Assembly: GCA_964621395.1 (NCBI GenBank) | Contig: CAZULS010000001.1 | Coordinates: 64,615-128,614 of the forward strand | DNA from: an uncultured Candidatus Saccharibacteria bacterium | GTDB taxonomy: Bacteria > Patescibacteriota > Minisyncoccia > Phycocordibacterales > JACNGX01 | Length of the DNA: 64,000 bases | Direction: 5' to 3' | In this document: piece after piece, positions 5,314 through 52,571 of the stretch | Numbering within the stretch: position 1 is the stretch's first letter | Layout: every line of letters begins with the position of its first letter | Translations under genes and position numbers: made by a program | The notes under the pieces: model-generated | What the model was told of the DNA's origin: nothing | The model's database searches: none | The model's input: the letters and a program-made list of their open reading frames with translations, nothing else

Positions 5314-5317
5314 CATA

Positions 5318-5510: not shown

Positions 5511-5555
5511 TTTACCTTATTCTCCTACCATATTAACCTCCTAACCTCCTACCAT

Positions 5556-6086: not shown

Positions 6087-6292
6087 TTACGAACATACGA
6101 ATACATACCATTAATTGCTCCGTTTCTTCAATCCTCAAATCAGACCTCAATATCTAAAGTAAGACCTCTGCCACTTTATTTTATAATGAGTGAAAGAAAT
6201 TTACACGCTTTAATCAGGAGTACAACACAAAAACATGCTTAACCCTCAAACACTAGCTTCGTATGTTCGTATGTGTTCGTACTTCGTACCCC
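6084..6292. repeat. TACGAA-array inverted-repeat cassette between yebC and ruvC
   Basis: ttacgaacatacgaatacatacc ... cttcgtatgttcgtatgtgttcgtacttcgtacc. Confidence 0.6.
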
Positions 6293-6293
6293 T

Positions 6294-6770
6294 ATGCGTA
6301 TTATAGGTATCGACCCAGGTTTTGATCGTATTGGTATTGCGATTGTTGAGAAAGAGGACGGCTCTGATGTACTTGTGCATTCCACCTGTGTCGTTACCGA
6401 CCGCACCGATTCCTTTGCAGACCGACTCGTGACAATTGCCACGGAGCTTCGCACCCTCATTGAAAAGTACCAGCCCGACATGTGCGCTATCGAAACACTT
6501 CTCTTTGCGGCAAACAAAAAGACAGCCATGCAAGTAGGTGAGGCTCGTGGCGCTATGCTTCTCGTCTGTCGAGAAGCGCATCTCGATATTGTGGAATATT
6601 CACCGCTTCAGATAAAGACGGCCCTCACCGGCTATGGAAAGGCGGAGAAGTCTCAGGTTGAACAAATGGTGCGACAATTGGTGGATGTCCCCGGAGGAAA
6701 ACGACTAGACGATGAGATGGACGCTATCGCCGTTGGACTTACCGCTCTCGCACACGTGCATCATCACTGA
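6294..6770 (+). CDS. ruvC: Crossover junction endodeoxyribonuclease RuvC
   Basis: MRIIGIDPGFDRIGIAIVE... with RuvC catalytic Asp/Glu positions. Start moved to the MRIIG Met inside track ORF 6273..6770. Confidence 0.85.
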   Translation: MRIIGIDPGFDRIGIAIVEKEDGSDVLVHSTCVVTDRTDSFADRLVTIATELRTLIEKYQPDMCAIETLLFAANKKTAMQVGEARGAMLLVCREAHLDIVEYSPLQIKTALTGYGKAEKSQVEQMVRQLVDVPGGKRLDDEMDAIAVGLTALAHVHHH

Positions 6771-22630: not shown

Positions 22631-24496
22631 TTATACCACGCCAGCAATGCTTGAAAGCGGATTGTCCGGAGCCTCATTCCCGCCGCTTTCTTTGAGGGCT
22701 TTCTTTGCTTCACGAATCTGGAGTACCTGTGAAGGATCGGAGGTGATGATTTGCTCCTCGGTGTAGGAAGCGAGGATTTTTATGGCAACGTGCTTGAGCC
22801 CTGCGAAGAATATACCTTCGCCGACATCGGATTCAAGAAGCAAAAATTTCTCTTCGTCGGTGAGATTGAATGTCTTTTGAACGGTGTCGATGGCTGTCGG
22901 TGATTGCTTGAGGAGAAGCTGGATTGAGGAGTTGGTGATAATCGGCAAGCCATACGGTGAACGAAGGAAGTCGGACACATCTTGGGTGATGGTTGCCACG
23001 CCAAGATAGTATTTTCGACCACGTTTCGTCATGCCAAAGAGGAACGATGCCGTGTCTTCGGATTTCATCATCCACCATGCCTCATCGATCACGAGAAGTC
23101 GCTTTTTAAGCTCGCGGCGAACGGCATTCCAGATAAAGTGGGTGATGATGTGCATGGCAACCGTCTTAAGCTCATCTTCCATATCACGCACAGAGAAGAC
23201 CACAAACTTTTTATTGATATTGATATTGGTTGGGCGGTTGATAAATTCAGACCACGTACCTTTTGTGTATTTTGAAAGACGATTGAGAAGTGACTCCCCT
23301 CCTTCCATGCCGGAGAGTACCATTTCAAAATCGGAAAGAAGCGGCGGTACAACATGCGAGAGGTCTGAATCGGGTGTAATGTCTTTGAGTGCGTAGGTTT
23401 CCGTGATGGCACGGTCGATGATGGAATCTTCCTCGGGAGACAGTCCTCCAAGCATGATACGGAAAAGACCGACGAGCGAAATGGTATTGGCACGAAGAAC
23501 ATCAGCCGCCGTCTCATCCTCACTGGGCATGGGAAGGTCGAAAGGATTGATGTGATGAGGAGATGTGAGCGAGATATTAAAATAGCGACCGCCTGCGGCT
23601 TCTGCCATAAATTCATATTCGCGCTCCGGGTCAATCACAATCACCTCCGTATCAAACATGAGGGTGCGAAGAATTTCAAGCTTGGTAGCAAACGATTTTC
23701 CGGCACCTGAGGTGGCGAAGATCACGGAATTGTAATTTTCCATTGAGAAACGGTCGAAAAGAACGAGGCTGTAATTGTGTCGGTTGATACCGTAGAGAAT
23801 ACCGCGATCGGATGTGAGATTAAATGAGATAAACGGAAAGATGCTAGAGAGCGGCGAAGAATTAAGCTTTGAGTGAATACCGAGCGAGTCGGACCCTGAG
23901 GGAATAACGCTCTTAAACGCGTCTTCTTGCTGGAAGAGGCTGGGCTTGAGATAGACGAGCTTTGATTCGAGAATCGACTTGATTTCCGATTCGATACGAT
24001 CGAGCTCTTCTTCTGTTTTTCCATAGACGGTGATGTAGAGGCCGACATCAAAGAGACGCTCTTGGGCCTGTTGGAGCTGGTCGCGAAGGTTTTCAAGATT
24101 GGCATAGGCGGCGGCAAGCTTCGGATCGCGCACCATACCGCGTTCCTCGCGCATCATAATTTGACTTTCCACCTCGGCAACTTTTTTCTGGAATTTGCGC
24201 AAAATAGCGGCGGTGTCCACCGGATGAATATGGATGGACACATCAAAGACAGCATCGAGGTTTACAATCGGGGAGAACCAGCTGTCGGCGAGATAACGCG
24301 GATAGGAGATGACAAAGAACGTGCGGGCAATACGGTCGCCCAAATTGAGCTCGCGAGGGGTGATTTTAAGTGCCGAGGGAGCAATAACGTCCTTCAATTC
24401 CAATACTGCCGATTCATATATTTCATGCGGCAATACAGGCACCACTTCCGGTGTGTCTTTCCCCTTCCCTATTCCCAATGTATCAAGAAGTGACAT
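22631..24496 (-). CDS. VirB4/TrbE/CagE-family type IV secretion ATPase
   Basis: Walker A IFATSGAGKSFATK, Walker B VIDEAW, 621 aa, domain order typical of VirB4. Confidence 0.8.
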   Translation of the reverse strand: MSLLDTLGIGKGKDTPEVVPVLPHEIYESAVLELKDVIAPSALKITPRELNLGDRIARTFFVISYPRYLADSWFSPIVNLDAVFDVSIHIHPVDTAAILRKFQKKVAEVESQIMMREERGMVRDPKLAAAYANLENLRDQLQQAQERLFDVGLYITVYGKTEEELDRIESEIKSILESKLVYLKPSLFQQEDAFKSVIPSGSDSLGIHSKLNSSPLSSIFPFISFNLTSDRGILYGINRHNYSLVLFDRFSMENYNSVIFATSGAGKSFATKLEILRTLMFDTEVIVIDPEREYEFMAEAAGGRYFNISLTSPHHINPFDLPMPSEDETAADVLRANTISLVGLFRIMLGGLSPEEDSIIDRAITETYALKDITPDSDLSHVVPPLLSDFEMVLSGMEGGESLLNRLSKYTKGTWSEFINRPTNININKKFVVFSVRDMEDELKTVAMHIITHFIWNAVRRELKKRLLVIDEAWWMMKSEDTASFLFGMTKRGRKYYLGVATITQDVSDFLRSPYGLPIITNSSIQLLLKQSPTAIDTVQKTFNLTDEEKFLLLESDVGEGIFFAGLKHVAIKILASYTEEQIITSDPSQVLQIREAKKALKESGGNEAPDNPLSSIAGVV

Positions 24497-26555: not shown

Positions 26556-29066
26556 TTATTTCTTCTCCGCATCTTTTTTATCTCCACTGCCCTCGCTTGA
26601 TTTATTCAGAGCATCGCGGAGATTGCGACCTGTTTTTTCAGCCAGCTTTGATAGTTGCTCAAGGTCCTTCTTTTTACCCTCGAGATCTATCTTATTTTTT
26701 TCATGTCTGTATTTCGCATCACGAGCAGTTTCCAGTTCACGGGTCTTTGCTTTTCCTTCCGGTCCGGTGCGCTCTGATTGAGTCATACTGTTTAATGTTG
26801 CCAAGAGAGATTCTTCACGTTTTGCTTCTTTCTTCAGACTGAGGTTAATGTTGCGAAGGTTTACGTTGAGTACTCCAAGTGTATTTTCAGAGGCCGTTTT
26901 CCATTCACCAGGGGAGGCATCAGCTGCCGCAAGACTACTGAAACGATCGTCTTTCTTCAGGGCTTCAAATTTCGCTTCATCCCGTTCTTTCTCAAGACGT
27001 TTATCTTTACCCGCATCTACTTTCTTAAGAATCTTTCCACTCGCTTCCATCTTTCCTCCCTTCGGTGCGCTTTGGTAGAGGCCCTTCATATCTTCCGCCT
27101 GCTGAGCTCTTCGTGCTTTGATTTCTTCTTTCTGCTGTGTCAGCTTAGCGTCAATTGCCCCACGCTCTTCCTCCGACTTGCCTATCTTCTTAAGTTTGCC
27201 GAAAATAGAGTTTACGGCAAGTCCTGCGGACTCCGGAATATTACCAATCTTCATGAATGTTGGCAGAGATTCCTTCTGAAGGTTCTCAGCGAATTCTTTT
27301 CGTGCAGCATCAGCGTACTTGTCGCCCACTTTGCCAAATGAATCAGCAAGTTTGATATTTTCTTTCTCTCGTTGTTCCATCTTTCCTTTGAACCCTCCCT
27401 TGCCGCGATCTTTGCCCCATGCTCCAATATTTTTGTCAGCTCCCACTTGACCGCCAATTTTCGTTCTCCTGATATCAAAGCTGCTCGTTGCTGCTGTATC
27501 CAAGCCGCGAAGCGCCAATCGCCCTGCCCAGTTTTGTCCCCATGATTGTCGTCTTGCTTCATCTTTACCAAGACTGGTTGCAAGACCGCCAAGTCTCTTT
27601 CGAAGCACTGCTCCGCCAACGCCGCCTGCCGCAAGACCAAGCGCTCCGCCGGCGAGTCCGGCGACTCTTTTACTGATGTCGAGAGAGACTCCGGCAAACG
27701 AGCCACATCTTTTGTCCGTCTGATCTTTGCCATATTTCAGAAGGAGAATGATGACACCAAACTTAAGCGCAAGCACAATGATGAATTCAAGGAAGTTGAG
27801 ACCCGATGTATTGTCGCTTGCCAGGAAGAGATTTGTTGCGTTAGAGGGGTCAGCAAAAATGACAGCAAGCCACACGAAGAAGAGAAAGATGACAATACAA
27901 AACGATTTACCTACAAGCTCTTTCCAGAAATATTTTTGTGTGGGGCTACTCGACTGTGGCAGTATCATGCTCACAAACGCCAAAGGCGAAGCGGCCATGA
28001 GTATCCACAAAACGACAATACGGGAAAGGAACAGAAATCCCGTGATAAAAAATATCCATGCCATGTAAAACATCATGGTAAAGGAGGCGACATAGAGAAA
28101 TACGAGTTTCCATACATCCCCTGTTTGTGCCATGTCTTCTCGTTCCTGGAGCATTTGCTGCGGGTCAATTTTTGTCATGAGCGTTGTGGAAACACCTTTT
28201 ACTTCTCTTCCGTCTCTATTTATAGCATCGGATTTGAGAGCAGCACCTTGCTCAGCCCTTCCATTGAGATTGCCGATTTCTGTTGTTTTAAAGCTATCGT
28301 AGAAAAACAGCGCAGCCATATTGCCAGCATCAATAATGACGCGGGTTACAAAGAGGCTGAAATTAATGAGAAGGGCAACGATGATGACCTTATGCAGAAG
28401 GTCTTTCGCCGTATTTTTGGGGATTCGAAGGATGGTGGCAATGGAAATCCACAGGAGGATGAAAATAAATGCAGCATTTGCCAAATCGCGGATATTTTCC
28501 CATGCACCTTCTACGAAGGTCTGGTTAATAATGTTGGGACTGATACCAAAATGGAGGAGGTAGTCGAAAAGAATGCCGGCACCCGCCATGGTGTGTCCGG
28601 AGACGATGAAGATGCCGTACATGACATGTCCGATACAGTTTCCTATCCCCACATTGTCAAGCCCACAACTGCCGAAAGGGCTGCTCCCCGTTGCTCCACT
28701 AAGAGGATTTGCCTCGTTTTGCATGTCCTCCAATGCTTGCTGACCCTCCTCTTCGCTTTGGCAGGTTGCCGGGAGACATGTGATATTATAGCCTCCTTGG
28801 TTTGCAAGGCTTACCTCCATGTTTTTTACGGACTGATCATTACAGCTTGTTGACCCATGTACTGTCTGGTGTGCACTGTACGAGGTTCCATACATGTCCC
28901 TAACGTATTGTATTCGACAATCAGCAGAAGCAATTGAGGGAATACAGACGAATAAAAAAAGCACAGGAAAAAACCATATGTTTTTGGGGAAGCTGTTGCC
29001 TTGTGTTTTGAAAAAAGACGTGAAGAAAGAAAACATACTACACATATATTGTACCAAAACATACAC
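26556..29066 (-). CDS. VirB6/TrbL-like polytopic membrane protein with an N-terminal Cys-rich extracellular domain and a long charged coiled-coil C-terminal tail (836 aa)
   Basis: Signal/TM, at least 6 TM helices mid-protein, K/E-rich repetitive tail, operon context. Exact start uncertain (Met1/8/11). Confidence 0.5.
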   Translation of the reverse strand: MYVLVQYMCSMFSFFTSFFKTQGNSFPKNIWFFPVLFLFVCIPSIASADCRIQYVRDMYGTSYSAHQTVHGSTSCNDQSVKNMEVSLANQGGYNITCLPATCQSEEEGQQALEDMQNEANPLSGATGSSPFGSCGLDNVGIGNCIGHVMYGIFIVSGHTMAGAGILFDYLLHFGISPNIINQTFVEGAWENIRDLANAAFIFILLWISIATILRIPKNTAKDLLHKVIIVALLINFSLFVTRVIIDAGNMAALFFYDSFKTTEIGNLNGRAEQGAALKSDAINRDGREVKGVSTTLMTKIDPQQMLQEREDMAQTGDVWKLVFLYVASFTMMFYMAWIFFITGFLFLSRIVVLWILMAASPLAFVSMILPQSSSPTQKYFWKELVGKSFCIVIFLFFVWLAVIFADPSNATNLFLASDNTSGLNFLEFIIVLALKFGVIILLLKYGKDQTDKRCGSFAGVSLDISKRVAGLAGGALGLAAGGVGGAVLRKRLGGLATSLGKDEARRQSWGQNWAGRLALRGLDTAATSSFDIRRTKIGGQVGADKNIGAWGKDRGKGGFKGKMEQREKENIKLADSFGKVGDKYADAARKEFAENLQKESLPTFMKIGNIPESAGLAVNSIFGKLKKIGKSEEERGAIDAKLTQQKEEIKARRAQQAEDMKGLYQSAPKGGKMEASGKILKKVDAGKDKRLEKERDEAKFEALKKDDRFSSLAAADASPGEWKTASENTLGVLNVNLRNINLSLKKEAKREESLLATLNSMTQSERTGPEGKAKTRELETARDAKYRHEKNKIDLEGKKKDLEQLSKLAEKTGRNLRDALNKSSEGSGDKKDAEKK

Positions 29067-29849: not shown

Positions 29850-31376
29850 CTATTCATTTGAGCTGAGGCTGAGAAAGCTGTTGTAATTTATGGCGACGAT
29901 ATCATATATTTCATGCGCACGAGCAATCATTGCCGTGTGCGCGGGAGACTGTTCAAGCGCAATACTTGTTCCGAACATTCTCGTCATAGCAGCATTTCTT
30001 TGCTTGAAATTATTGTATGCTTCCCATGCATTAATTTTGTCGACTGACTCTCTCGCCACTTCTGCCTGAGCAAGAAGTGATTCCAACTCTGAGATATAGA
30101 CCTCAAGAGACCCTGTTGAGTCGGCTTGAGTGAGTATGAGCGTTGTTTCGTCTTGAATGGTGATGGCTTCACCGCGGAGTCCGGAGAGCTCGTTCACGGA
30201 GAGGAGTCCGGGGTATCCCAACAGTGCGTCTTCATAGTCGTCTTGGTCAGAAAGAGTGGCATCGATAGTGATAATGGCTTCCCTCACAGCTTCTCGTGCG
30301 TCAATCACATTGGCAAGGAAGTCATTTGTCGAGTGTACGAGCGCGAGGTCTTCCTCGATAGCTTTAATAAGATTTTGGTCGGGTTCGGGTGCGTACGATC
30401 CGCTCCCGTAGAATCCATACGACGAAGATCCGCCGCCGGTGAGTGTGTCGCGGACACCGCTTCGAATACTGCTTCGTGCCGCGTCAAAACCATTATTAAT
30501 AATACCTGCAACAAGCTCTTGGAGCGTTGCGGTGAGGATTTCTCCAATATCGTCGGCATTTTCAAGGGAATCTACTCGTGAACCGAGAGCATTGCTCATT
30601 TCCGCAGCAACGAATTGTCCCGGATTGACTCGTTCCCAGTTAATACAACCGTCTGAAGCATCGATGGAGCCGTCGCCATTGGTGTCGATACCAACCGACT
30701 CAATACAATTTCCCGGAAGTGAAAGGACGCCTCCCCCCTCGTTGAGCTCACGATAGATTTCGTTTTTCTTCTCCTCTACGCGCCGCCGATTTTCTTCCAT
30801 CGCCATATAATACTGGCCATAGGGGTTATTTTGCGGTTCAAGCGTTGAAAGGAAACCGGTCCAGCCTCCCTGAGAGAAATCGTCAAAAAATGCTTCCGGC
30901 TCCACGAGAACATCTTCAATTGTGGACTGCGCGCGGATTGCGTATGGCGTGTAGGTAACAGAGAGAAGTTTCATCATGCCTCGTTTGAGCGGTTCGTAGG
31001 TGTCGAGACCGGCGATTTCTCCGATAAGGTTGTTGGTGACATCTCGGGAAAGCTTGGCAATAAACGCTTGAGGATCCACCAAGAACATAAGATCACCGAA
31101 AAATCCTTGCTCCACAAGTGTTTTTACTTCCATCACGATGTCATTGATGATTGTTTTGGCGAGCATCCATGCGACGGTGTCGAGACCTATGGTGCCGGCG
31201 ATGCCCTCGCGAGGATCACGCGTAAGGTCGGATGTGACGATAACGGCGCTTCCTGATGCTGTGGCATGTGTGTGCGTGGGCACGAGAGTTATCCCAAGGG
31301 GAAGAACAAAAAGCGCAATCGCAATGCCAGCGCCCCAACGGGAGAAAGAAAATGTTGTGTGTCCGAACATGTACAT
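29850..31376 (-). CDS. Large secreted hypothetical protein (508 aa)
   Basis: N-terminal signal/TM; no family recognised; operon context. Confidence 0.45.
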   Translation of the reverse strand: MYMFGHTTFSFSRWGAGIAIALFVLPLGITLVPTHTHATASGSAVIVTSDLTRDPREGIAGTIGLDTVAWMLAKTIINDIVMEVKTLVEQGFFGDLMFLVDPQAFIAKLSRDVTNNLIGEIAGLDTYEPLKRGMMKLLSVTYTPYAIRAQSTIEDVLVEPEAFFDDFSQGGWTGFLSTLEPQNNPYGQYYMAMEENRRRVEEKKNEIYRELNEGGGVLSLPGNCIESVGIDTNGDGSIDASDGCINWERVNPGQFVAAEMSNALGSRVDSLENADDIGEILTATLQELVAGIINNGFDAARSSIRSGVRDTLTGGGSSSYGFYGSGSYAPEPDQNLIKAIEEDLALVHSTNDFLANVIDAREAVREAIITIDATLSDQDDYEDALLGYPGLLSVNELSGLRGEAITIQDETTLILTQADSTGSLEVYISELESLLAQAEVARESVDKINAWEAYNNFKQRNAAMTRMFGTSIALEQSPAHTAMIARAHEIYDIVAINYNSFLSLSSNE

Positions 31377-40600: not shown

Positions 40601-41409
40601 TTGGTAGTTTTTAGTTTTTAGTGGGCGCGGCTACGCCGCGCCTCATAAATTACACTTCCTGTCATCCCGCACTTGATGCGGGATCTCCGCTATATTGTTT
40701 CCAGACATGGTTGGGGAAGATCCTGAATCGAGTTCAGGATGACACAGGGAACATGGGTGCCAGCACATCTGCATTTCATATCATACAAAAAAACAAAGGG
40801 CCCGTTAGAAACGGACCCCTCAGGAGGTGAAGCATGGCATCCGGGATAATCGATATCAAATGACTGATAAATGTCTTAAGTAATGAACATGAGAAAAAGT
40901 AAAAAAGAGGAGAGTGCGTGGCGCCACGCAGCATGTTCAAAAAGAAAGACAAAAATCAACCAACTGATATACGACTATGTCGAATCAAGCTTCACTTAAA
41001 AAAGAACAGGTACAAAAGAGCGCAAGTAACGATAGCTGATACTATTCTCGCATATCTCACGCATTCGTCAAGTGCGATTGTGGATAAAACTAGCCCCGCC
41101 TTTTTACGGGCGGGGCCTGCGACGAACATCTTTGCGCGGGGTTTGCACTACCGTGTGATGCTGCTCATATCGCGGCAACCTGTTTCAGAGACACTGACAC
41201 AGGTTGTGGTAATCGGGGATGCACGTTTCATAACGTTCTCCTTTTACCGAATTTGGGAATTCAGTAAAGGTAATGCAAGGGCATTACCCCTTGTTCTTCC
41301 ATTCCCATAGAGAAGAACAAACGAATTTCAATATAACATATCTAAGACACAAAGTTAAATATATTTCTGCTCAAAAGATTTTCTGTAACAGATGTGACAT
41401 TATCAAAAA

Positions 41410-43803
41410 TTATGCAATATCCTCCGGCGAAAGAGTGAGTGATTGTCCGCGGGCGATTGTTTTTGCGATGAGACCGTCGGCAATGTATTGTTCGATATGC
41501 TGCTGGATGTAGCGTTTCATTGGGCGGGCACCGAACGCTCTGTCGTAGCCTTCACGCGCGACATGAGCCGCCATCTCGGGGGCAAATGACACACGTACAC
41601 CTCCCTCTTCCTCAATACGCAGAGCAACTTTCCGGAGCATGATGTGAGCAATGGCTTCCACGTCTTTTGGTGAGAGCGGATGGAAGAGAATGGTGCCGGA
41701 GAAGCGGTTGAGGAGTTCGGGCTTAAAGAGGCCATGTTCGATTATCATTGCGATGAAGGTGTCATGCTCTTCGGAAACGTCGCGACCTTCTTCAGTCGCT
41801 TTCCAGATGATGTCGGAGCCGGCATTGGATGTGGCAATAAAGAGAATGTTGCGTGCGTTGACGCGCCTCCCCTCTCCATCGGTAAAGATTCCTTCATCGA
41901 GAATCTGCAAGAACAGATCGTGAACATCCGGATTTGTTTTTTCGAATTCGTCGAGAAGTAACACGCCGTGGGGATGTTCTCGGATCATTGTGGCAAGCAT
42001 GCCCGCCTCCCCGGACGGTGTGCCGATCAAGCGAGCAAGTGCGTCGTGTCCGCGGTATTCCGACATATCAAGACGCAGGAGCGAAGACTCGCCGCCAAAG
42101 ACGACACGCGAGAGCGCTTTGGCGGTTTCTGTTTTCCCGACTCCGGTCGGGCCGAAGAAGATAAATGAGCCGATTGGTTTGCGCGTGTCGGAAACTCCCG
42201 CGCGAGCTCTTCTGAGTGTTTGTGCGATGGCGGAGATTGCCGTCTCTTGACCCACGATGTGTTTGTGGAGGTGTGTTTCAAGATCGGAGAGGACGAGACG
42301 TTCGGAATCTGAGAGCGCGTCAACTGGCACGCTACTTTTCTCGGCGATGAGTGAGCGAATGGTTTCGGGAGTGATGAGCCGCTCTTTTTCCGCAACAGCA
42401 ACTCGGGCGGCGGCTTCGGAGAGGAGATCGCGCGCTTTGTCTACCGGGTCTGCCGACATGAAGTATCGCTCAGCTCCGGAAAGCGCCTTCTCGATTGCCG
42501 GATAGGTGAAGAAGACGTGATAGTTCTTTTCAAGATCGGCAACATCGGACTCCAAAAAGATGAGGAGATCGCTTGAGTCTACGCGCGGAGGACGGACGAT
42601 TTCGAAGCGGCGCATGAGCGACATGTCGCGTTCAAGTTCGCGTGTGTAGGTGCGTGTATCGGAAAACGCGATGAACGCTAGTGACGAATCGGTGAGGAAA
42701 GGATCGAGTATCGAGCGGATATCCGCACCAATTGTGTGTGCTGAGGCCATGAATGCGTGAAGGCGCGGTATGCCGATAATGATATCTCCGGCGTGCCGCG
42801 CTTCTTCCAGGAGTGCTCGGAGGATGCGTTCAAAGGTGATTTTGTCACCCGTCTCGGCGATGAGAAGATCGGTGTCAAGGAGTGCGATGCGTGTATGTTT
42901 CTTTTCTCCAGTGGGGCGGCTGCGAAGCTCGCTTAGGAGGCTTCCGAGGAATACAGGAGCATCAAAAGGACCGACGACAAGCACATTGGATTCATGTGAT
43001 TTTGAAAGACCGCCCAATACACGCGAAAGGGTACGCTCTCCAAGAACACTTCCTTGTGACGCATACGGTACCGTACGGAGGAATGCATCAAGTGTATCGG
43101 TGCGTTTTTTGTGAAATGTTGCGCCAAGTGTTTTTTTGCTTAAGAGCCGCTCGGTATGCCACCAGAAGATTCTATCCAGTTCTCTCTCGCGCATGCGTCC
43201 ACACCACCCGGCTGTGCTTGCGGCGACGTGGCGTGTGATGCCTTTGGAAAAAAGAAAGTCGCTCAAAGGTTCGTCATGTGCGATGAGTTCGGCGACAAAA
43301 TCTTCAAGAGAATACCACGGCGAGTGATCGGTGTCGGTAAAGGAGAGTTTCGTTTTTTGCACACCTCTTTTTTTGAGAAAAGCGCGTACTTCTTTTGGTG
43401 AGAGTCCGAGGCGGTGCGTGTATGCAGTGCCGATTGGCGAGCGAAAGAGCGCACGAACCAAATCACCGCGATGCATACTTTCGGTGATGGAAAGGACAGC
43501 AAGAGAGATAAGCCTCTCGACGCCCTCGGTGGTTTTTGTGCCGCGTGCGCGGAAATACAGTGAGCGGAAAAAAAGCTCCGCCATGAAAAGAACAAGTGTG
43601 CAGCCAAAGAGTATGAGGCCGATACCGGCGATGATGTTTCCGTATGTGTGCGTGTGAAAGGTTGCCGCGCCGAAGAAAAGAATGATTGCCAGCATGAGTG
43701 CCCCTGCGGCAATTCTCATACGAGCTCGGCGCGGAAGCAATCGCTCAAGGACGGAAAGCGGATACAGTGCCGAGCGTGAAGTTGTGTTCCTGAGTGTGCT
43801 CAT
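41410..43803 (-). CDS. Membrane-anchored ClpA/ClpB-family AAA+ protein with a degenerate (Walker A/B-less) first nucleotide-binding domain and an intact second one
   Basis: Two N-terminal TM helices. D1 GPFDAPVF (no GKT) and IIIGIPRLH (no DE). D2 FFGPTGVGKTE, LLLDEFEK, sensor/arginine finger region. No middle domain or ClpP loop recognised. Start set at MSTLRNT, overlapping the upstream gene stop by 4 nt. Confidence 0.65.
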   Translation of the reverse strand: MSTLRNTTSRSALYPLSVLERLLPRRARMRIAAGALMLAIILFFGAATFHTHTYGNIIAGIGLILFGCTLVLFMAELFFRSLYFRARGTKTTEGVERLISLAVLSITESMHRGDLVRALFRSPIGTAYTHRLGLSPKEVRAFLKKRGVQKTKLSFTDTDHSPWYSLEDFVAELIAHDEPLSDFLFSKGITRHVAASTAGWCGRMRERELDRIFWWHTERLLSKKTLGATFHKKRTDTLDAFLRTVPYASQGSVLGERTLSRVLGGLSKSHESNVLVVGPFDAPVFLGSLLSELRSRPTGEKKHTRIALLDTDLLIAETGDKITFERILRALLEEARHAGDIIIGIPRLHAFMASAHTIGADIRSILDPFLTDSSLAFIAFSDTRTYTRELERDMSLMRRFEIVRPPRVDSSDLLIFLESDVADLEKNYHVFFTYPAIEKALSGAERYFMSADPVDKARDLLSEAAARVAVAEKERLITPETIRSLIAEKSSVPVDALSDSERLVLSDLETHLHKHIVGQETAISAIAQTLRRARAGVSDTRKPIGSFIFFGPTGVGKTETAKALSRVVFGGESSLLRLDMSEYRGHDALARLIGTPSGEAGMLATMIREHPHGVLLLDEFEKTNPDVHDLFLQILDEGIFTDGEGRRVNARNILFIATSNAGSDIIWKATEEGRDVSEEHDTFIAMIIEHGLFKPELLNRFSGTILFHPLSPKDVEAIAHIMLRKVALRIEEEGGVRVSFAPEMAAHVAREGYDRAFGARPMKRYIQQHIEQYIADGLIAKTIARGQSLTLSPEDIA

Positions 43804-44189
43804 AGAAAAAGAATGAAGAATCCGAGGAGTATGACGGCGATTGCGGCAAACGGAAGAAGAAGCCAGAGTATGAAGGAAAAGAGAAGAATCGGCAGCGAAC
43901 AGAGTGTGACAATCAGCCATCCGAGGAGGAGAACGCTTCGGGCGATTATGCCGACAATGCGCATGAGTGTGTTGACGATAAACGCTTCAAAGAATTTGGT
44001 CGGTGAGAGATCTTTCGGATACGCTTCCCCTTCCGCTTTCCAGGGACGGAAGAAGGTGGCAAGAAGAGTGGGCACGGAAAACGTGTGCGCGAGAAAGCGA
44101 AGTGCCGTGAGCGCAAGAGAAGCTCCATCGGAGATGCCGATAGAGTAATGCCACAAAAGATAACGACTCGAAAGCGCGAGAGGATTCAT
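43800..44189 (-). CDS. Small polytopic membrane protein (129 aa) translationally coupled to the Clp-like ATPase gene
   Basis: ORF track; 3 hydrophobic helices; its stop overlaps the start of the downstream gene. Confidence 0.45.
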   Translation of the reverse strand: MNPLALSSRYLLWHYSIGISDGASLALTALRFLAHTFSVPTLLATFFRPWKAEGEAYPKDLSPTKFFEAFIVNTLMRIVGIIARSVLLLGWLIVTLCSLPILLFSFILWLLLPFAAIAVILLGFFILFL

Positions 44190-44318
44190 GATGTAAGTAT
44201 ATCAATGCCGCACCTCTGCCGCTACTTTTTGTGTGCATGAATTTTCTGTATTTGTAGTACTGTATAAAAAGACGAGCCCAGAATGCCCGTCTTTTTATAA
44301 TTATACACAGCGAAATTT

Positions 44319-44639
44319 CTACGCTGTTTTTGTTTTAAATTCCTCAATGGTCTCGGTCATAACCTGAGACATGACTGAATCCCAATCGGGAATATGTGTC
44401 GCAATAAATGCTGACACCTCAGCTGAGGTCACCCCTCCATCTTCTTCGGAGAGACGGTTGAATTCTTCTTGATGCTCTAAAGGAATGCGGTCAATTGCTG
44501 CAAGGAGAAGGCGTTTTACGATAATTTCTCCCAATTGTTCAATAACCTGCTCTTGCTCTTCTTCGGAGAAACCTTCAAGGCCGAGCTTTTCGACGATAAT
44601 CGCATGGAGTGCATCGTATGTTGCAATTGATGAAGACAT
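44319..44639 (-). CDS. Small acidic hypothetical protein (106 aa)
   Basis: ORF track only. Confidence 0.35.
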   Translation of the reverse strand: MSSSIATYDALHAIIVEKLGLEGFSEEEQEQVIEQLGEIIVKRLLLAAIDRIPLEHQEEFNRLSEEDGGVTSAEVSAFIATHIPDWDSVMSQVMTETIEEFKTKTA

Positions 44640-44674: not shown

Positions 44675-46042
44675 CTATTTGTTTTGAAGATTCTGTGCAA
44701 TGCTATCGATTTCCGCCTGAGAAAGATTGAGTGCATCTTGATACGCGGTATTTACATTTCCATCGTTGAGCACAGAGGACAAATCAAGCGTATCTCCCGG
44801 GAAAATCATATCGGGATCGCCGCTTTCAATACCGACAGCTTGGAGCTGGCCAGGGTTCATAGCCTCAACACGATCCTTTAGCGCATCCACAACATGCGTT
44901 TGCTGCTCGGCGCCCATGGCATCGAATGTGGATTGACCGGACAGTTTCTCTTTGATGATATCCCACACGGTATCACCTTCTTCGACAGGGATGTTGCTTG
45001 TGTTACCTAGGAGACCTTCAACTGCGCTGCTCGCACCATCTCCGACACCGGAAAGCAGCTCACCAAAGAGGCGGCCAAGTAAGACAGTGGCAACGACACC
45101 GCCGCCCGCGGAGACAAGAGTGTGAACATTTTTCTTAACGGTAGAGCGCTGATCGACACCCTCCCCTTTCTTCTTTGCGTATTTTTCAAATGCTCCTTCA
45201 AAAGTTGCATAGAGTGCCGAGCCGGTCAAAACGCGACCCACTATTGCCGGAGCGAAAAATGCGGGAAAACCCGTAAAAGTTCCCACAACAGCGCTTCCAA
45301 CCGCTGCTGCGGCAAGACCACGTTTAACCCACTTTGGACATCCTTTTTTCCACCATTCCCCGAAACGACGTCCGACATTCCACCCCTCTTTTTCTTTTTG
45401 AGCAAGTTTTTCTTCGTCGCGGCGTTGCATTTCTTCTAGCGCCTTTTTGACATCTTCCTGACGCTCCGCCTTCTCTCGCAAATCTTCCATATCGGTGAGC
45501 GGTTCAAGACGGTCCTTCTCTACGGTACCGTCACCCACTTCTCCTTGAGTGTTTTCCACCTCTCCTTCTTTGTCGTCAGTATTGCGATTTTCAAAACCGG
45601 CACGAAGGCCAGCGCCCTTTTCCGTGTCATCCAACGGACTCCCTGCTCCTTGCTCTTTGCCCGGAACCTCAGTTGTTACAGATCCTTGAGGAGGAGTATT
45701 CGGATCGTATGCTTGTTCCGAAGAGATTTGCTCTCCCATGACGAAATTAGACTCTTCTTTCTCGTTCTCGTTGTCGTCGGTATTGCGATTTTCAAAGCAT
45801 TCTTTCAGAGCTGCGCCTTTTGTTGTGTCATCCAACGGACTCCCTGCTCCCTGCTCTTTGGGCACAGACTTCTTTTTTGAGCGGAGTTTTTCCATTGGGT
45901 TAAAGGAGAAGGCGGTCCCTCCTTCTTTTTCTTTCGGTTTTTGTAATTCCTCTTTTGGATTAAAAGAGAACGAATCACGCGGACGTTCCCCATTGACGAT
46001 ATCTTCCAGGCTAGGAAAATCTTTTTCAGGTGAAGACGACAT
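44675..46042 (-). CDS. LysM-domain membrane protein with a tandemly repeated acidic N-terminal region (KEQGAGSPLDDTxKGA...FENRNTDD x2)
   Basis: C-terminal LysM (EEGDTVWDIIKEKL...IFPGDTLDL), a central TM/Gly-Ala helix, and an internal ~45-aa repeat. Confidence 0.55.
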   Translation of the reverse strand: MSSSPEKDFPSLEDIVNGERPRDSFSFNPKEELQKPKEKEGGTAFSFNPMEKLRSKKKSVPKEQGAGSPLDDTTKGAALKECFENRNTDDNENEKEESNFVMGEQISSEQAYDPNTPPQGSVTTEVPGKEQGAGSPLDDTEKGAGLRAGFENRNTDDKEGEVENTQGEVGDGTVEKDRLEPLTDMEDLREKAERQEDVKKALEEMQRRDEEKLAQKEKEGWNVGRRFGEWWKKGCPKWVKRGLAAAAVGSAVVGTFTGFPAFFAPAIVGRVLTGSALYATFEGAFEKYAKKKGEGVDQRSTVKKNVHTLVSAGGGVVATVLLGRLFGELLSGVGDGASSAVEGLLGNTSNIPVEEGDTVWDIIKEKLSGQSTFDAMGAEQQTHVVDALKDRVEAMNPGQLQAVGIESGDPDMIFPGDTLDLSSVLNDGNVNTAYQDALNLSQAEIDSIAQNLQNK

Positions 46043-46176: not shown

Positions 46177-46438
46177 CGCTCTATACGAAAGAAACGGCTG
46201 GTTTGACGCGCCCGAAGCATATACTCACCGAACCGATCCAAAACGGCTTCGTTGAGCCATATCATTCGGATTCTGCACGATAGACACACCCTCGGAATAG
46301 CTTGAAAACCCTTGAAATACGGCATATTACGCCTGTATGTGCGGGGCAGAAGAGCTCTTTCCCCTACGGCTTATAATACCCTCAATACAAGATCCTGGCA
46401 GTTTCCTTGTTATTGCAAGTCAGGTGAACATACTGTAT

Positions 46439-47458
46439 ATGAGACGCTCCGCAGCGTTCCGTGCGGTGGCTATTGTCGTGTCTCTCTCCATCCCGCTCTT
46501 TACGCATGCGGGTGTATTCTCTTTTGTCGGCGGTCTTCTCGGAAGTGAAGAAAAGACAGAGACGATTGCGCTTTCCGAAGAGAATTCTCAGACCATGGCG
46601 TTGCTCTCCCCTGCGCTTCACCCGGATCCGAATCCGGCAAAGGGTGGTGGTGATATTTCCGTGGTAGACGGCGCAGCGCTTTTGCCGGAGGCGGGTCCCT
46701 CAGGCACCCTTGCCGATATTGAAGAAATTTCTCTTACATCCGATCATATTTCTTTGTATGTGGTGCGTCCGGGCGACTCCCTTTCTCAGATTGCGGAAAT
46801 GTTTAATGTCTCACCGAGCACGATTAAATGGGCGAATGATATTTCTTCAAGCGATGTGATTGTTCCCGGCGACACATTGGTGATTTTACCGATTTCCGGT
46901 ATTCGCCACACGGTGAAGAGCGGCGATACTGTGGGAAGCATTGCAAAGAAGTATGGTGGTGATATTGATGAGATTCTCGAATACAATGCCCTTGAAAGCG
47001 CGACACTTTCTGTGGGTGATATCCTCATCATTCCCGATGGAGAAATGGGCACACCTGCCGGCACATCTTCATACTCTCGCGGAGCAACACCGACATATTC
47101 TTCCACCGCTTCATCAGGATATTACATGCGTCCGATTTCCGGAGGATATCGTTCCCAGGGATTGCATGGATACAATGCCGTTGACCTTGCTGCGCCGATT
47201 GGCACACCGATTTATGCATCAGCATCCGGTGACGTGATTCTTTCCCGCGGCAGCGGATGGAATGGTGGCTATGGAAGTTATATTGTGATCAGACATCCAA
47301 ATGGCACGCAAACACTCTACGCGCACAACTCTCAGAATATCGTTTCCGCCGGTCAGCATGTGGTGCAAGGTCAGATTATTGGATACGTCGGCTCAACCGG
47401 ACGCTCAACCGGACCGCACATCCACTTTGAAATCCGCGGCGCGGCGAATCCATTTTAA
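46439..47458 (+). CDS. Secreted M23-family peptidoglycan metallopeptidase with two LysM domains
   Basis: Signal peptide; LysM x2 (YVVRPGDSLSQIA, HTVKSGDTVGSIA); M23 motifs HxxxD-like GLHGYNAVDLAAPIGTPIYA and HIHFEIR. Confidence 0.8.
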   Translation: MRRSAAFRAVAIVVSLSIPLFTHAGVFSFVGGLLGSEEKTETIALSEENSQTMALLSPALHPDPNPAKGGGDISVVDGAALLPEAGPSGTLADIEEISLTSDHISLYVVRPGDSLSQIAEMFNVSPSTIKWANDISSSDVIVPGDTLVILPISGIRHTVKSGDTVGSIAKKYGGDIDEILEYNALESATLSVGDILIIPDGEMGTPAGTSSYSRGATPTYSSTASSGYYMRPISGGYRSQGLHGYNAVDLAAPIGTPIYASASGDVILSRGSGWNGGYGSYIVIRHPNGTQTLYAHNSQNIVSAGQHVVQGQIIGYVGSTGRSTGPHIHFEIRGAANPF

Positions 47459-47702
47459 TACGAACGATAAATAAAAAACGATAAACGATAAATCAAAAAA
47501 CACGAGCTCGCGCTCGTATTTTTTGTGTAAAAGATAAACCTGTAACGATATTACTTTCCACTGTCATCCCGCACTTGATGCGGAATCCAGGCAGAAGTGG
47601 GTGGTTATATATACTTTTAGATTCCCGCTCGGAGGCGGGAATGACAATCTTTCTTACTCATAAGCAGAAAATGGCACATAAAAACCCCGCACAGAGCGAG
47701 GT

Positions 47703-48227
47703 TCAATGAAGACGATACACCGAATCATGTTCCCAAGAGTCTTGGAGATATTTTTTCGTCTTCAGGGAAAAAGCAGACACCCTCATTTTTTCTCCAGCAT
47801 ACGAATGAGAGAGGGTTGGTTTGCACTCTCCTCTATTTAAGCTGAAGTGAGGGATATACCAGTTCCCGCCAATGTCGCGCGCCATTTTATCAAAGAGATC
47901 AGGACTTCTATCAAGATCTCTGAGACTACTCAAGAGATCTCCGTGGAGATGCCAGAGTGGAACGGGTCGAGTGGTTTGTAGCGCCCACACCTTCTTCCCA
48001 TCTCTTCCCAGAGAAATAAGGTCTCCTATTTCTAGGGTAAATTTTTTACGCCTTTGCGCGATTTTCTGCAGGGCTTCTCGGACATTCTCTATGTTTTCAT
48101 CATGTGGAGTAAAACGCCACAGAATTATGTGGTACCCGCTTGGAGGAGGGTATACATATTCGGATGGTTCGTTTTCGAGAAGATCAAGAATATGTCTGGA
48201 TAGCTCAAGGCAAACAAGACAGTGCAT
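47703..48227 (-). CDS. 2H phosphoesterase superfamily protein (LigT / 2-prime-5-prime RNA ligase-like)
   Basis: Two H-x-T/S-x-like motifs (HIIL, HFSL) at the spacing expected for LigT. Start moved to MHCLV because the upstream extension covers a hairpin repeat. Confidence 0.45.
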   Translation of the reverse strand: MHCLVCLELSRHILDLLENEPSEYVYPPPSGYHIILWRFTPHDENIENVREALQKIAQRRKKFTLEIGDLISLGRDGKKVWALQTTRPVPLWHLHGDLLSSLRDLDRSPDLFDKMARDIGGNWYIPHFSLNRGECKPTLSHSYAGEKMRVSAFSLKTKKYLQDSWEHDSVYRLH

Positions 48228-48407
48228 AGCTACGTGTTTTGTTGTTGTGCAAGATTTCTTCCGATATCCTACCCAAAACATGCCGAAGGTGCAAGGGAAA
48301 TTCTTTTTGTCATCCCGCACTTGATCCTAAATCGCAAGCGTCGGATACAATGCGGGATCTCGAGAGTATTGTTTCAAGAAGTGACGGCAAGTGAAGAGAA
48401 GCAAGAA

Positions 48408-48442
48408 AAGCACGGCAACCGAAGGTTGCCGTGCTTTTGTAT
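48408..48442 (-). terminator. Rho-independent terminator downstream of yifB/comM (aaaagcacggcaaccgaaggttgccgtgctttt)
   Basis: GC stem with a GAAG loop and flanking T tracts. Confidence 0.55.
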
Positions 48443-48510
48443 GCTTAATTCGTAACTCGTAATTCCCTAGGCCGACCGTGCCGGTTGCACGGGCTAGGCT
48501 TTATTCTGCT

Positions 48511-50079
48511 TTACATTTCCCACACCTGCGGTCGATACCGCAGTGCTTCAAGAACATGTCGTTCTTCAATGGTGTCGGAATTGTCCAAGTCGGCGATGGT
48601 GCGGGCGACTTTGGTTGTCTTGTGATAGCCGCGTGCTGAGAGTCCGAGTGATTTCGCCGATTGTGTGAGGGTGTTGCGCGCCGCTTCCCCGAGATGCGCA
48701 TGAGCATCAATCATGCGCGCAGACATATCGGCATTGGTACGCGCCGGTGTGTCTCTCAGTCGAGATGCACTTTTCTCCCGTGCGCCTTCCACCCGACTCC
48801 TGAGAGTTTCGCTCCCTTCCCCCCGAGGTGCTTCAGCAGCAAGCTTTTCATGATTGATAGCATCAACCGACAGCCACATATCAATGCGATCCATAATCGG
48901 CCCTGACAATTTTTTACGATAGGACAGAAGCTGGCTCTGGGTGCAGGTGCAATGTTTACTTGAGCCAAAGTTTCCACACGGACACGGATTCATTGCCGCG
49001 ACCAAAATAATATTTGCGGGAAACGTTTCGGTGCCGCGCACACGGGAGACGGTCACAATACTGTCTTCAAGTGGCTGGCGTAGTGTTTCAATCACCCGCT
49101 TATCGAATTCAGGGAATTCATCCAAGAAAAGTACGCCGCGATGCGCGAGGGTGATCTCACCCGGCTTCGGTACTGAGCCGCCACCGATGATTGCCGTGTG
49201 TGATGCGGTATGATGTGGTGCACGAAATGGCGCAGTAGTCTGGAGTACTTCCTCTAAAGCACCCGCAATAGAATGGATGGCGGTTACTTCAAGCGCATCC
49301 TCAGGTGAGAGCGCGGGCAAGATGCCGGTGAATGCTCGGGCAAGCATGGTCTTTCCGGTACCCGGAGGACCATACATGCACACATTGTGTCCGCCCGCTG
49401 CCGCGATTTCGAGCCCGCGCTTGGCAGATTCTTGCCCGCGCACATCACTGAAATCGACATGGCTTTTTGTGTGAGAGATAACGATGGGTGTTGGCGGTTG
49501 AGGTTGCAACAGTACCTTCTCCCTTCTTTTCTTATCCTTTTTCTCTAGAGGTGTTTCGTCGATGTGATTAATGATATCAAGAAGCGTGTGTGCCGGATAA
49601 ATGGCGATGCCATCAATGAGTGCTGCTTCCTCGGCGTTTTCGAGAGGGACGAAGACCGATTCAAATCCTCTCTTCCGCGCCTCGCGCACAAGCGCCAATA
49701 TTCCTTTTTGCGGGCGCAGTGTCCCGTCGAGGGCAAGTTCTCCCAAGAAAAGTGTCTTTTCCGGATGAAAGATAATTTGTTCATCGGCGAGAAGATATCC
49801 GAGAGCAATGGCGACATCAAAAAGCGGACCTTCTTTGCGAATGTCCGCCGGGGCAAGAGAGACAACTGTTTTTTGCTGACTTGATTTCGGTGAGGAGAAG
49901 TCGATATTTTTAATCGCGGCACCGACGCGATCGCGCGCCTCTTCCACCGCCTTGTCGGGGAGTCCAACAACAGAAAATGCATATAGAGTGTTTTTTACAA
50001 TGTCGGTTTCCACATTGACGATTGTTGCAGAAAGTCCGACAGTCTGGGCTGCATATACACGAGAGAAGTGAGTACTCAT
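48511..50079 (-). CDS. comM: YifB/ComM-family Mg-chelatase-like AAA+ ATPase
   Basis: N-terminal Lon-protease-like domain, Walker A MYGPPGTGKT, arginine finger region, 522 aa. Confidence 0.8.
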   Translation of the reverse strand: MSTHFSRVYAAQTVGLSATIVNVETDIVKNTLYAFSVVGLPDKAVEEARDRVGAAIKNIDFSSPKSSQQKTVVSLAPADIRKEGPLFDVAIALGYLLADEQIIFHPEKTLFLGELALDGTLRPQKGILALVREARKRGFESVFVPLENAEEAALIDGIAIYPAHTLLDIINHIDETPLEKKDKKRREKVLLQPQPPTPIVISHTKSHVDFSDVRGQESAKRGLEIAAAGGHNVCMYGPPGTGKTMLARAFTGILPALSPEDALEVTAIHSIAGALEEVLQTTAPFRAPHHTASHTAIIGGGSVPKPGEITLAHRGVLFLDEFPEFDKRVIETLRQPLEDSIVTVSRVRGTETFPANIILVAAMNPCPCGNFGSSKHCTCTQSQLLSYRKKLSGPIMDRIDMWLSVDAINHEKLAAEAPRGEGSETLRSRVEGAREKSASRLRDTPARTNADMSARMIDAHAHLGEAARNTLTQSAKSLGLSARGYHKTTKVARTIADLDNSDTIEERHVLEALRYRPQVWEM

Positions 50080-51179: not shown

Positions 51180-52571
51180 TTACAATTCTCGGCGTTCTTG
51201 AATCACACGAGCAATAACCTCATCAATGGTATCAATGCTGGTACTTATAATCAGCGTGTCTCTCCCAAAGAATGTGTATGCGAGGACAATTGCCCCACTT
51301 CCATCACGCAATACGCGCATGTCTCTGTTTTTGACGAGATAATCTTCCCACGGTGCGGTGTAGACACTTCTTTCAACCTCCGTGCCGATAAGGGGGAGAA
51401 AATCATCAGGAAGATCTTTTTCCCACTTGAGCATGTTGGAGAATGCGCTGTCGAAGTCATTGGTAAAGAAGAGAAGGAATGCCTGATTACCGTTCCAGGA
51501 GTGGATACCAAACATATGCTCTCCTTCAAGAGCGCGAAGCATGTCGGGAGGAATGAGCCCTCCAACGAGTATGGAGAAACGCTCCGTGTCGGCGATTTGC
51601 CGATAAGGATTTTCTTTCGGATCAATGGGTTCGATGAGCTCGGTAAGATACAGATATTCAATAGCGTCCGGCGGCAAAGCAACATTTACAACTTCTTCGG
51701 TAATGACGGTGCGAAGTTTTCCGGTGGAGAGTTCATCAGCTTTAAATTCGACTGATTTTTCAATAAATATGGAAGCGGTTACTCTCGGCTCAAGGAGGGA
51801 AAGAACTGTGTCACCGGTAAAGATATACCATGCGCCTGTCGCAATCACTCCGACGCTGAGGATGATAAGAACAATACTCCCCCACATAAACGAGTTGTGT
51901 GCTTTTTTCTCACCAACGGCAATCTCTTCCTTTTCTTGTTTGACGTTGTGTTCGGCGAGGACCATTTGCACCATTGAGGTTTTGTTCCCTTTCATTGCTT
52001 CAGCGATATCCGATTCAAACGTGCGCAAACTTTTGAGCTTGTGTGCTTTACCGACTTCCTCGGCTTTTTTGTGACCGCGCCTGGTTGCCTCCTTTTCTCG
52101 CTTCTGTGCCATCTCTTTACTCTCTTCAGCCGCCTGCTTTTTTTCGCTCATGACATTGGAAGCAAAGAGAGGGTCACCTTCTATGGTGTCTCTTCTCACA
52201 ACTTTGGGATCAACGACTTCCTTTTCTCGTTTGATTTCCCCGGCGATGGCTGTGAGGTGTGGAGCGGCACCGCGGGAGATCGGTGATTTCACACTCTTCT
52301 TTCTGAGCTCTTTTGCCACCGATGTGTCCGGGACAGTTGTCGTGCTTTCAGATGTTTGTGGGTTTTGTGAAACAGCACGCTCCTCTTTCTGTACTTCATT
52401 CTTGGGAATGGAAGAAAAAGCGGCAGGTTCTTCTCCCCGCATCATGGCGTCGAGATCGACAGGTTCGCGATATGAGGTGTCTGCCGAAGGAGACGTCGAC
52501 TCAGAAGACGCGGCGGCGTTTGTACTGGGAGAAGGAGTATTTGGTTCGTCCGGGAGTTGAGTCGGTTCCAT
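51180..52571 (-). CDS. Hypothetical protein with a disordered N-terminus, a central TM helix and a C-terminal globular domain (463 aa)
   Basis: ORF track; TM SFMWGSIVLIILSVGVIATGAWYIF. Confidence 0.4.
   Translation of the reverse strand: MEPTQLPDEPNTPSPSTNAAASSESTSPSADTSYREPVDLDAMMRGEEPAAFSSIPKNEVQKEERAVSQNPQTSESTTTVPDTSVAKELRKKSVKSPISRGAAPHLTAIAGEIKREKEVVDPKVVRRDTIEGDPLFASNVMSEKKQAAEESKEMAQKREKEATRRGHKKAEEVGKAHKLKSLRTFESDIAEAMKGNKTSMVQMVLAEHNVKQEKEEIAVGEKKAHNSFMWGSIVLIILSVGVIATGAWYIFTGDTVLSLLEPRVTASIFIEKSVEFKADELSTGKLRTVITEEVVNVALPPDAIEYLYLTELIEPIDPKENPYRQIADTERFSILVGGLIPPDMLRALEGEHMFGIHSWNGNQAFLLFFTNDFDSAFSNMLKWEKDLPDDFLPLIGTEVERSVYTAPWEDYLVKNRDMRVLRDGSGAIVLAYTFFGRDTLIISTSIDTIDEVIARVIQERREL

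Follow-up and report, generated by a model that had tools for sequence, protein, structure and literature searches.

A membrane-anchored Clp/Hsp100-like ATPase with a degenerate first ring and a conserved small membrane partner in Patescibacteria

Our analysis concerns two overlapping genes on the minus strand of a 64,000-nucleotide stretch of contig CAZULS010000001.1 (hereafter the window, whose positions are used below), from an uncultured Candidatus Saccharibacteria bacterium, and indicates that they encode a membrane-anchored Clp/Hsp100-like ATPase and a small membrane protein that accompanies it. The open reading frame (ORF) of the ATPase spans 41410..43920, and translation from the ATG inside it, at 43803, yields a protein of 797 aa with the same sequence as database protein P0001; the gene as we define it from ORF, Pfam and HMMER analysis, stop codon included, occupies 41410..43803 (minus). 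Upstream of it lies the gene of the partner, 129 aa, at 43800..44189 (minus; ORF and translation), the product of which is identical to P0025. The two genes overlap in an ATGA at 43800..43803 (minus), where the TGA of the 129-aa ORF shares its letters with the start of the Clp-like gene. This can be read directly in ...TTTCTATGAGC... and bears out the overlap claimed by an earlier, sequence-only reading of this DNA; it is the arrangement one would expect for translational coupling. The pair is bracketed by two structures on the same strand. On the upstream side a hairpin, AAAAAGACG...CGTCTTTTT, can be read at 44266..44296 (minus) in the 129-nt spacer between a DUF5663 gene and the small gene; a consensus terminator scan did not flag it, and it likely marks the upstream boundary of a two-gene operon. 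On the downstream side a terminator-like hairpin, a consensus match only, lies at 41276..41293 (minus), about 117 nt 3' of the Clp-like stop codon.

By its fold the 797-aa protein is a member of the Clp/Hsp100 superfamily, yet it fails the defining features of ClpA, ClpB, ClpC and ClpV. Pfam places AAA_lid_9 at residues 423-490, AAA_2 at 542-702 (E 4e-39) and ClpB_D2-small at 710-790, and the class-I hallmark of tandem D1 and D2 AAA+ modules with a C-terminal ClpB_D2-small domain is present. HMMER aligns two domains of the protein to ClpC and ClpB, with ClpC (3j3t) and ClpB (6oax) as the best matches of known structure at E ~1e-87. An AlphaFold model of the monomer (13 homologues; mean pLDDT 82, pTM 0.71) finds ClpC, ClpB and ClpA as its top full-length Foldseek matches, with E ~1e-38, both rings covered, and target-normalised TM-scores of 0.73-0.76 over some 570-590 aligned columns. 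What is missing is equally clear. Neither the ClpC M-domain (residues 417-468) nor the ClpB M-domain has a counterpart in the HMMER alignments, and EGRD aligns with the VGF loop by which ClpC docks ClpP, no tripeptide of the IGF/IGL/VGF type being present at that site in the family alignments; on both absences the sequence-only reading was correct. The protein scores far under every NCBIfam equivalog cut-off for Clp subfamilies: 316 bits against a cut-off of 993 for TIGR02639 (ClpA), 355 against 1232 for TIGR03346 (ClpB) and 300 against 885 for TIGR03345 (TssH/ClpV). Pfam finds no match to Peptidase_M41, a feature of FtsH. No type VI secretion genes were seen in the window or in related loci, and regex searches of the 64-kb window, with the rest of the genome outside their scope, found neither ClpP nor a canonical Clp with a GYVG loop.

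The first ring appears to have lost its enzymatic function. The D1 module, residues 263-475, was delimited by HMMER and family alignments at 42379..43017 (minus), and HMMER alignment locates within it remnants of the Walker A motif (GPFDAPVF, 42949-42972), of the pore loop (AETGDKITFE, 42829-42858) and of the Walker B motif (IIIGIPRLH, 42757-42783), all on the minus strand. Set against ClpC, G-PFDAP-VF stands opposite GEPGVGKT, with both the P-loop Lys and Thr gone; IIIGIPRLH stands opposite IILFIDALH of a DWB-mutant ClpC chain, in which the wild type reads FIDELH; and GDKITFE takes the place of the canonical KYRGEFE of the pore loop. The RR of the Arg-finger motif is kept. Alignments to ClpC and ClpB agree on the loss of both Walker motifs, which had been noticed from the sequence earlier and is no artefact of translation.

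The same holds throughout the family. ATPase relatives were collected by a word-indexed search and then by searching 1.84 billion half-identity representatives with a profile, and motif counts were taken over 162 family members. The Walker A Lys of D1 is kept in 46 of these, the Walker A Thr/Ser in 9 and the Walker B DE in at most 3, and not one of the 162 reaches four or more of the five features that a competent D1 would need (Walker A Lys and Thr/Ser, Walker B DE, Arg finger). The D1 pore tyrosine is lost in every one, its position being held by D, E, N, T or S and never by an aromatic residue. At greater distance, a Saccharimonadales locus, L054 (2575-5004), keeps both a D1 Walker A (GQAGTGKT) and a Walker B (IDEAQ), and another, L081 (2224-4599), keeps only a Walker A (GPLGSGKS); in the D1 of both, the Arg-finger motif and the pore Tyr are gone. 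Different lineages seem to have disabled D1 by different routes, and there appears to be no lineage among those examined with a fully competent D1.

The second ring presents a different picture. The active D2 ATPase module together with the D2-small domain covers residues 476-797, at 41413..42378 (minus; Pfam, HMMER and family alignments), and alignment shows its ATPase motifs to be intact: Walker A GPTGVGKT (42130-42153, minus), Walker B LLLDEFEK (41938-41961, minus), sensor-1 TSN, the Arg finger NRF and sensor-2 GARP. All of these are nearly invariant among the 162 members, and D2 is the best conserved region of the protein, with a mean pairwise identity of 0.55, where the hairpin, N-domain and D1 reach 0.23-0.31. 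The earlier statement that D2 is intact is therefore right for the ATPase motifs, all of which are present, but not for the GYVG pore loop, which is shortened. In the window protein the loop aligns as LIGTPSGEAGMLA (41992-42030, minus), and HMMER and MAFFT alignments show GAPPGYVGYEEGG cut to GTPSGEAG (LIGTPSG-----EAGML). The loop is 4-5 residues shorter than in canonical proteins and GYVG is deleted in all 162 relatives. Aromatic residues are absent from both pore loops of the window protein and of P0002-P0004, the relatives closest to it, and in Saccharimonadales and other distant Patescibacteria loci the D2 loop is shortened too and the D1 Tyr absent. Tyr251 and Tyr653 of E. coli ClpB are the substrate-gripping pore-loop tyrosines of Hsp100 proteins. 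Since the D1 Tyr and GYVG are missing family-wide and the window loops carry no aromatic at all, it is doubtful that the window protein would thread substrates processively by the canonical mechanism.

These results bear directly on another account of the protein, namely that it is an ordinary Clp ATPase which feeds ClpP. The database names suggest as much, as do the best matches in sequence and fold, which are ClpC, ClpA and ClpB. However, the hydrophobic tripeptide for docking ClpP is lacking, the NCBIfam scores fall below their cut-offs, and a dead D1 is combined with degenerate pore loops; we consider this account close to refuted.

At its N-terminus the ATPase carries a transmembrane (TM) hairpin, residues 25-89, at 43537..43731 (minus), identified from hydropathy, AlphaFold and the family profile, with K/R-rich flanks and a short HTHTYGN loop. 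Hydropathy peaks are centred at residues 36-42 and 62-73, and AlphaFold helices run over 25-48 and 52-89, in accord with the two N-terminal TM helices originally proposed. The flanks are rich in Arg, with RRARMR ahead of helix 1 and RSLYFRARGTK behind helix 2. Because of these flanks and the uncharged HTHTYGN loop, the positive-inside rule suggests that both ends of the hairpin would lie in the cytoplasm.

Behind the hairpin follows an all-helical N-domain, residues 90-215, at 43159..43536 (minus; models, Foldseek and hhalign), of which residues ~100-210 are confidently modelled as seven to eight helices. Neither Pfam nor NCBIfam assigns this N-region to a family. In hhalign comparisons with Clp_N the probability is 33% when the alignments are small and 42% when they are deep, in both cases with both repeats in register. 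When the isolated N-region model is compared with the PDB, Foldseek ranks 1-23 are all Clp-type N-domains or ClpC fragments that contain one, among them those of ClpC, ClpC1, HSP101, Hsp104, ClpA, ClpV and ClpT; the matches are weak, with E values of 0.14-2.7, none of them significant, and Foldseek probabilities of up to 0.94. In the full-length Foldseek comparison, target chains that include an N-domain align over 730-815 columns and chains without one over ~570-590. The hairpin was thus probably added ahead of a divergent, double-repeat Clp_N-like domain rather than substituted for one, and the earlier description of TM helices "instead of" a Clp N-domain probably does not hold, given the resemblance, albeit with weak scores, of the helical domain at ~100-210 to Clp N-domains.

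The partner belongs to no Pfam or NCBIfam family, but its conservation pattern is distinctive. The first ~84 residues have a net positive charge and conserve W13-H14-Y15, P49-W50, N73, R77, G80 and R84. Its C-terminal hydrophobic block, residues ~84-129, is with ~45 residues long enough for a two-helix hairpin and conserves W109 and P113. Across 17 diverse members W13, F37, G80, R84 and W109 are invariant, and P49, N73, R77 and P113 are kept in at least 90%. Family-averaged hydropathy shows weaker amphipathic segments at ~27-46 and 64-83. A cytoplasmic N-terminal part followed by a membrane hairpin fits these data better than the three TM helices with which the protein had been credited: one hydrophobic block is secure, the other segments are weaker and amphipathic, and a 3-TM topology is not established.

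How widely is this pair of genes found? The word-indexed search yielded 12 full-length relatives of the ATPase at 32-85% identity, the named ones from Candidatus Yonathbacteria and Paceibacterota, and in the profile search at least 150 half-identity representatives match the ATPase profile end to end at more than 740 bits, from residue 1 and including the hairpin region. For the partner there are 450 homologous clusters at E <=1e-3, and among the 120 listed nearly all are ~110-150 aa long. All named clusters of either protein are Patescibacteria, those of the partner falling in Minisyncoccia, Nealsonbacteria, Wildermuthbacteria, Lloydbacteria and Saccharimonadales. All 12 two-gene loci, namely the window and 11 others (L001, L003, L005-L009, L017, L039, L054 and L081), have a partner homologue directly upstream of the ATPase gene and on its strand, and they span Yonathbacteria, Taylorbacteria, Parcubacteria and Saccharimonadales. 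The paired genes overlap by 4 nt or sit at most 10 nt apart, while their flanking genes vary from locus to locus. Part of this sample comes from a contig scan with the family alignment that used D2 motif patterns; 74 of the 80 loci it returned were canonical Clp genes of other phyla, the useful ones being L008, L009, L017, L039, L054, L081 and a thirteenth locus, L014, in which the two genes are fused.

In this fusion (L014, 2257-4716, plus strand) partner and ATPase form a single ORF of 820 aa, in which the hairpin of the partner replaces that of the ATPase. The fusion links both proteins functionally, and it implies that the C-terminus of the partner is on the ATPase side of the membrane. 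The gene directly before it is ftsH (260-2236), and a DUF6909 gene (4726-6405, minus) also adjoins it. The locus is labelled as a metagenome-assembled genome of an uncultured gammaproteobacterium, and the contig may be mis-binned. A hairpin or fused partner, a degenerate D1, a short D2 loop and a partner homologue upstream are found together in the window, the 11 other loci and the one fusion, and the pair, which had been singled out earlier for a check of its distribution, is found across Patescibacteria. The pairing is evolutionarily obligate, and the two genes are a real operon conserved across Patescibacteria.

No third gene is universal across the paired loci. In only four loci is there a shared order of serS, a gene for an unknown protein of 267-332 aa, the small gene, the Clp-like gene and dus. 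The homologues of the 267-332-aa protein, at L003:4686-5489, L006:2254-3072, L007:3562-4560 (with a faint POTRA_1 match) and L008:1286-2278, lie between serS and the small gene; this protein may be a lineage-specific third partner, or the order may be mere shared gene order.

Conservation on this scale also decides whether the protein might simply be a Clp paralogue in decay. The lost D1 motifs and the loss of both pore loops would suit such decay, but at least 150 half-identity clusters conserve the protein over its full length, the catalytic residues of D2 are near-invariant, the partner is conserved and has invariant residues of its own, and the ORF is intact and free of frameshifts. This refutes decay, to which we give next to no credence. 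The distribution likewise argues against an anti-phage defence module of the Dodola DolB or PDC-M37B type. PADLOC does report matches to PDC-M37B (E 1e-33) and DolB (E 2e-33), but these span only the shared D2 AAA domain, residues 486-664. Neither the partner nor the neighbouring genes have a PADLOC match, and there is no DolA-like gene. Moreover, the genes around the pair are housekeeping ones (serS, dus, uvrD/pcrA, dprA), and its conservation is superphylum-wide, unlike that of a defence island, which makes a role in defence very improbable.

The only experimental data we found that may bear on the pair come from Southlakia epibionticum. Its SEML1_0700, a probable orthologue annotated as an "AAA family ATPase", is 860 aa long, with AAA_2 at 544-706, ClpB_D2-small at 713-792 and no Clp_N (PMC10633639, Tables S1 and S2), and SEML1_0701, a 127-aa hypothetical protein, is encoded directly upstream on the same strand with a 22-nt overlap (PMC10633639). 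In architecture and gene order the two match the Saccharimonadales loci L054 and L081. The transposon sequencing (Tn-seq) calls of the two genes are alike, NE, NE and GD at passages 0, 1 and 2, with read counts that drop over time; that is, both tolerate transposon insertions and show a late growth deficit (PMC10633639). The same organism also has a canonical ClpC, SEML1_0512, with a double Clp-N and UVR, and a ClpP, SEML1_0493, both called NE (PMC10633639), and the presence of this separate machinery beside a probable orthologue is a further point against coupling of our protein to ClpP. If the orthology holds, the pair is dispensable for viability but benefits fitness, and it is present alongside an ordinary ClpC-ClpP system, which it does not replace.

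What, then, might the pair do? We tentatively propose, with confidence a little short of even, that the two proteins form an obligate, ClpP-independent and Patescibacteria-specific membrane AAA+ complex in which D2 is the sole motor, D1 is a scaffold, and remodelling does not rely on processive threading. The large protein, a class-I Clp/Hsp100 derivative, would assemble as a hexamer at the cytoplasmic face of the membrane, tethered there by its N-terminal hairpin. D1, presumably unable to bind or hydrolyse ATP, would serve as a structural ring, leaving D2 as the only motor. The partner would bring in a further membrane hairpin together with its conserved, basic segment on the cytoplasmic side, and may be fixed in place beneath or around the ring. 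ATP hydrolysis in D2 could then power work on the partner itself, or on clients embedded in the membrane or close to it, in the form of remodelling, assistance with extraction, or gating. Because neither ring in the window lineage has an aromatic pore loop, a short-stroke, switch-like remodelling would be favoured there over processive threading.

The sequence-only reading had arrived at a membrane-tethered Clp with a pseudo-ATPase D1 and a partner, all of which stands; it had also called the protein an unfoldase, and this part is weakened by the state of the pore loops in all 162 relatives. A link to secretion, which it had raised as well, finds nothing in its favour, since no gene near the pair ties it to a secretion system.

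Several considerations weigh against our proposal. A displaced Phe or Tyr occurs in the short D2 loop of 91 of the 162 relatives (consensus LIGSFExGKPG), so that threading may persist in the family at large and the lack of aromatics in the window clade may be derived. Adjacency and one fusion are no more than indirect signs that the two proteins touch, and no further fusion occurs among the 150 best representatives. The AlphaFold model is that of a monomer. There is no conserved third gene that would serve as a functional clue. Finally, the orthology of SEML1_0700/0701, which we regard as probable, rests on architecture and gene order rather than on sequence comparison.

Much of this could also be accommodated by the main rival, a classical membrane-protein extractase or unfoldase, in which a D2 hexamer would thread membrane or secretory proteins along its axial channel in the manner of Msp1 or FtsH, with the partner as adaptor or entry gate. 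An intact D2 ATPase, a membrane anchor, a probable Clp_N-like domain that could bind clients, the one aromatic that most relatives keep in the short D2 loop, and the position of the L014 fusion directly after ftsH (a single case) are all consistent with such a machine. However, the window protein and P0002-P0004 have no aromatics in either loop; the D1 Tyr and the Ar-phi GYVG are gone from every relative counted; there is neither a partner protease nor a ClpP loop; and no secretion genes are conserved nearby. We therefore think such an extractase unlikely, if far from negligible.

Comparison with known systems helps to place the complex we propose. With Clp/Hsp100 class I the window protein shares tandem D1-D2 modules with AAA_lid_9, AAA_2 and ClpB_D2-small, together with a probable Clp_N-like domain, and with ClpA it shares the lack of an M-domain. 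It differs from class I in its N-terminal hairpin and obligate small membrane partner, in a D1 without Walker A, Walker B or pore Tyr, and in its short D2 GYVG loop; it differs from ClpA and ClpC in having no ClpP loop and from ClpB in having no M-domain. FtsH is an AAA+ ring at the cytoplasmic face with two N-terminal TM helices per subunit and an aromatic pore loop. An AAA+ module behind two N-terminal TM helices is common to both proteins. However, the window protein has no M41 peptidase and is a two-ring Clp rather than a classical single-ring AAA, FtsH keeps its aromatic pore loop, and Patescibacteria carry ftsH as well (e.g. L014). In NSF, p97, Pex1/Pex6 and other two-ring AAA+ proteins of this kind, a motor ring is joined to one that acts mainly as a scaffold and usually still binds nucleotide. 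The window protein resembles them in pairing a motor ring with a non-catalytic one, but its D1 lacks the P-loop Lys and Thr. Msp1/ATAD1 and HSP101-PTEX thread substrates with canonical pore-loop aromatics. Msp1, which is TM-tethered, and HSP101, which is ClpB-like and docked on a membrane pore, are likewise AAA+ rings that act at a membrane, and HSP101 N-domains (4iod, 4irf) are among the fold matches of the window N-region; the pore-loop aromatics, however, are absent from the window protein. Our literature searches turned up no account of a Clp/Hsp100 protein anchored in a membrane, nor of this ATPase-partner pair.

A functional analogy is torsin, a Clp-D2-related AAA+ protein of the eukaryotic ER and nuclear envelope, without aromatic pore loops, that acts at the membrane and needs small TM cofactors, LAP1 and LULL1. 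What the two would have in common is a partner-dependent, non-threading logic, a likeness in working and not in descent: torsin is a single ring that takes its Arg finger from the cofactor, whereas the window D2 keeps NRF and sensor-2, and past the shared AAA clade there is no sequence relationship. One could go further and imagine a Patescibacteria-wide membrane machine in which a Clp-derived ring gave up threading and D2 hydrolysis drives a ring of small hairpins (~24 TM helices per hexamer) that gates, transports or remodels something in the membrane, for instance lipids or host-derived proteins, a bacterial counterpart of torsin-like AAA+ proteins. We judge that extended picture to be quite improbable as it stands.

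The surroundings of the pair in the window deserve brief mention. Upstream of the operon lies the gene of a DUF5663-like acidic protein of 106 aa (44319-44639, minus; E 1.4e-4, just under the Pfam cut-off), and beyond it that of a 455-aa protein (44675-46042, minus) with no Pfam match and a hydrophobic central segment. A KEQGAGSPLDDT.KGA.L...FENRNTDD motif occurs twice in this latter protein, and Tandem Repeats Finder reports nothing in its gene; in the equivalent place in the Yonathbacteria locus L001 there is a Band_7 protein. The window at 46337-50079 and L001:1-2745 (Candidatus Yonathbacteria) share the order ComM-like Mg-chelatase ATPase, LysM-M23 peptidase, pair. Further away, a 621-aa protein (22631-24496, minus) has a TraG/VirB4-type P-loop domain (E 3e-27) and may belong to a type IV secretion or conjugation-like apparatus, and ORFs of 836, 508 and 463 aa (26556-29066, 29850-31376 and 51180-52571, all minus) have no Pfam match at E <=1e-4.

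While we focus here on one pair of genes, the organisms that carry it make up a large and poorly understood bacterial group, the Patescibacteria, with tiny genomes and an epibiotic lifestyle, and a gene pair so widely kept in reduced genomes likely matters to the organism. The question of what it does is testable, Saccharibacteria being genetically tractable. More generally, a natural Hsp100 protein that combines a nucleotide-free D1 and short pore loops with an obligate membrane partner could reveal the extent to which the Clp scaffold can depart from threading.

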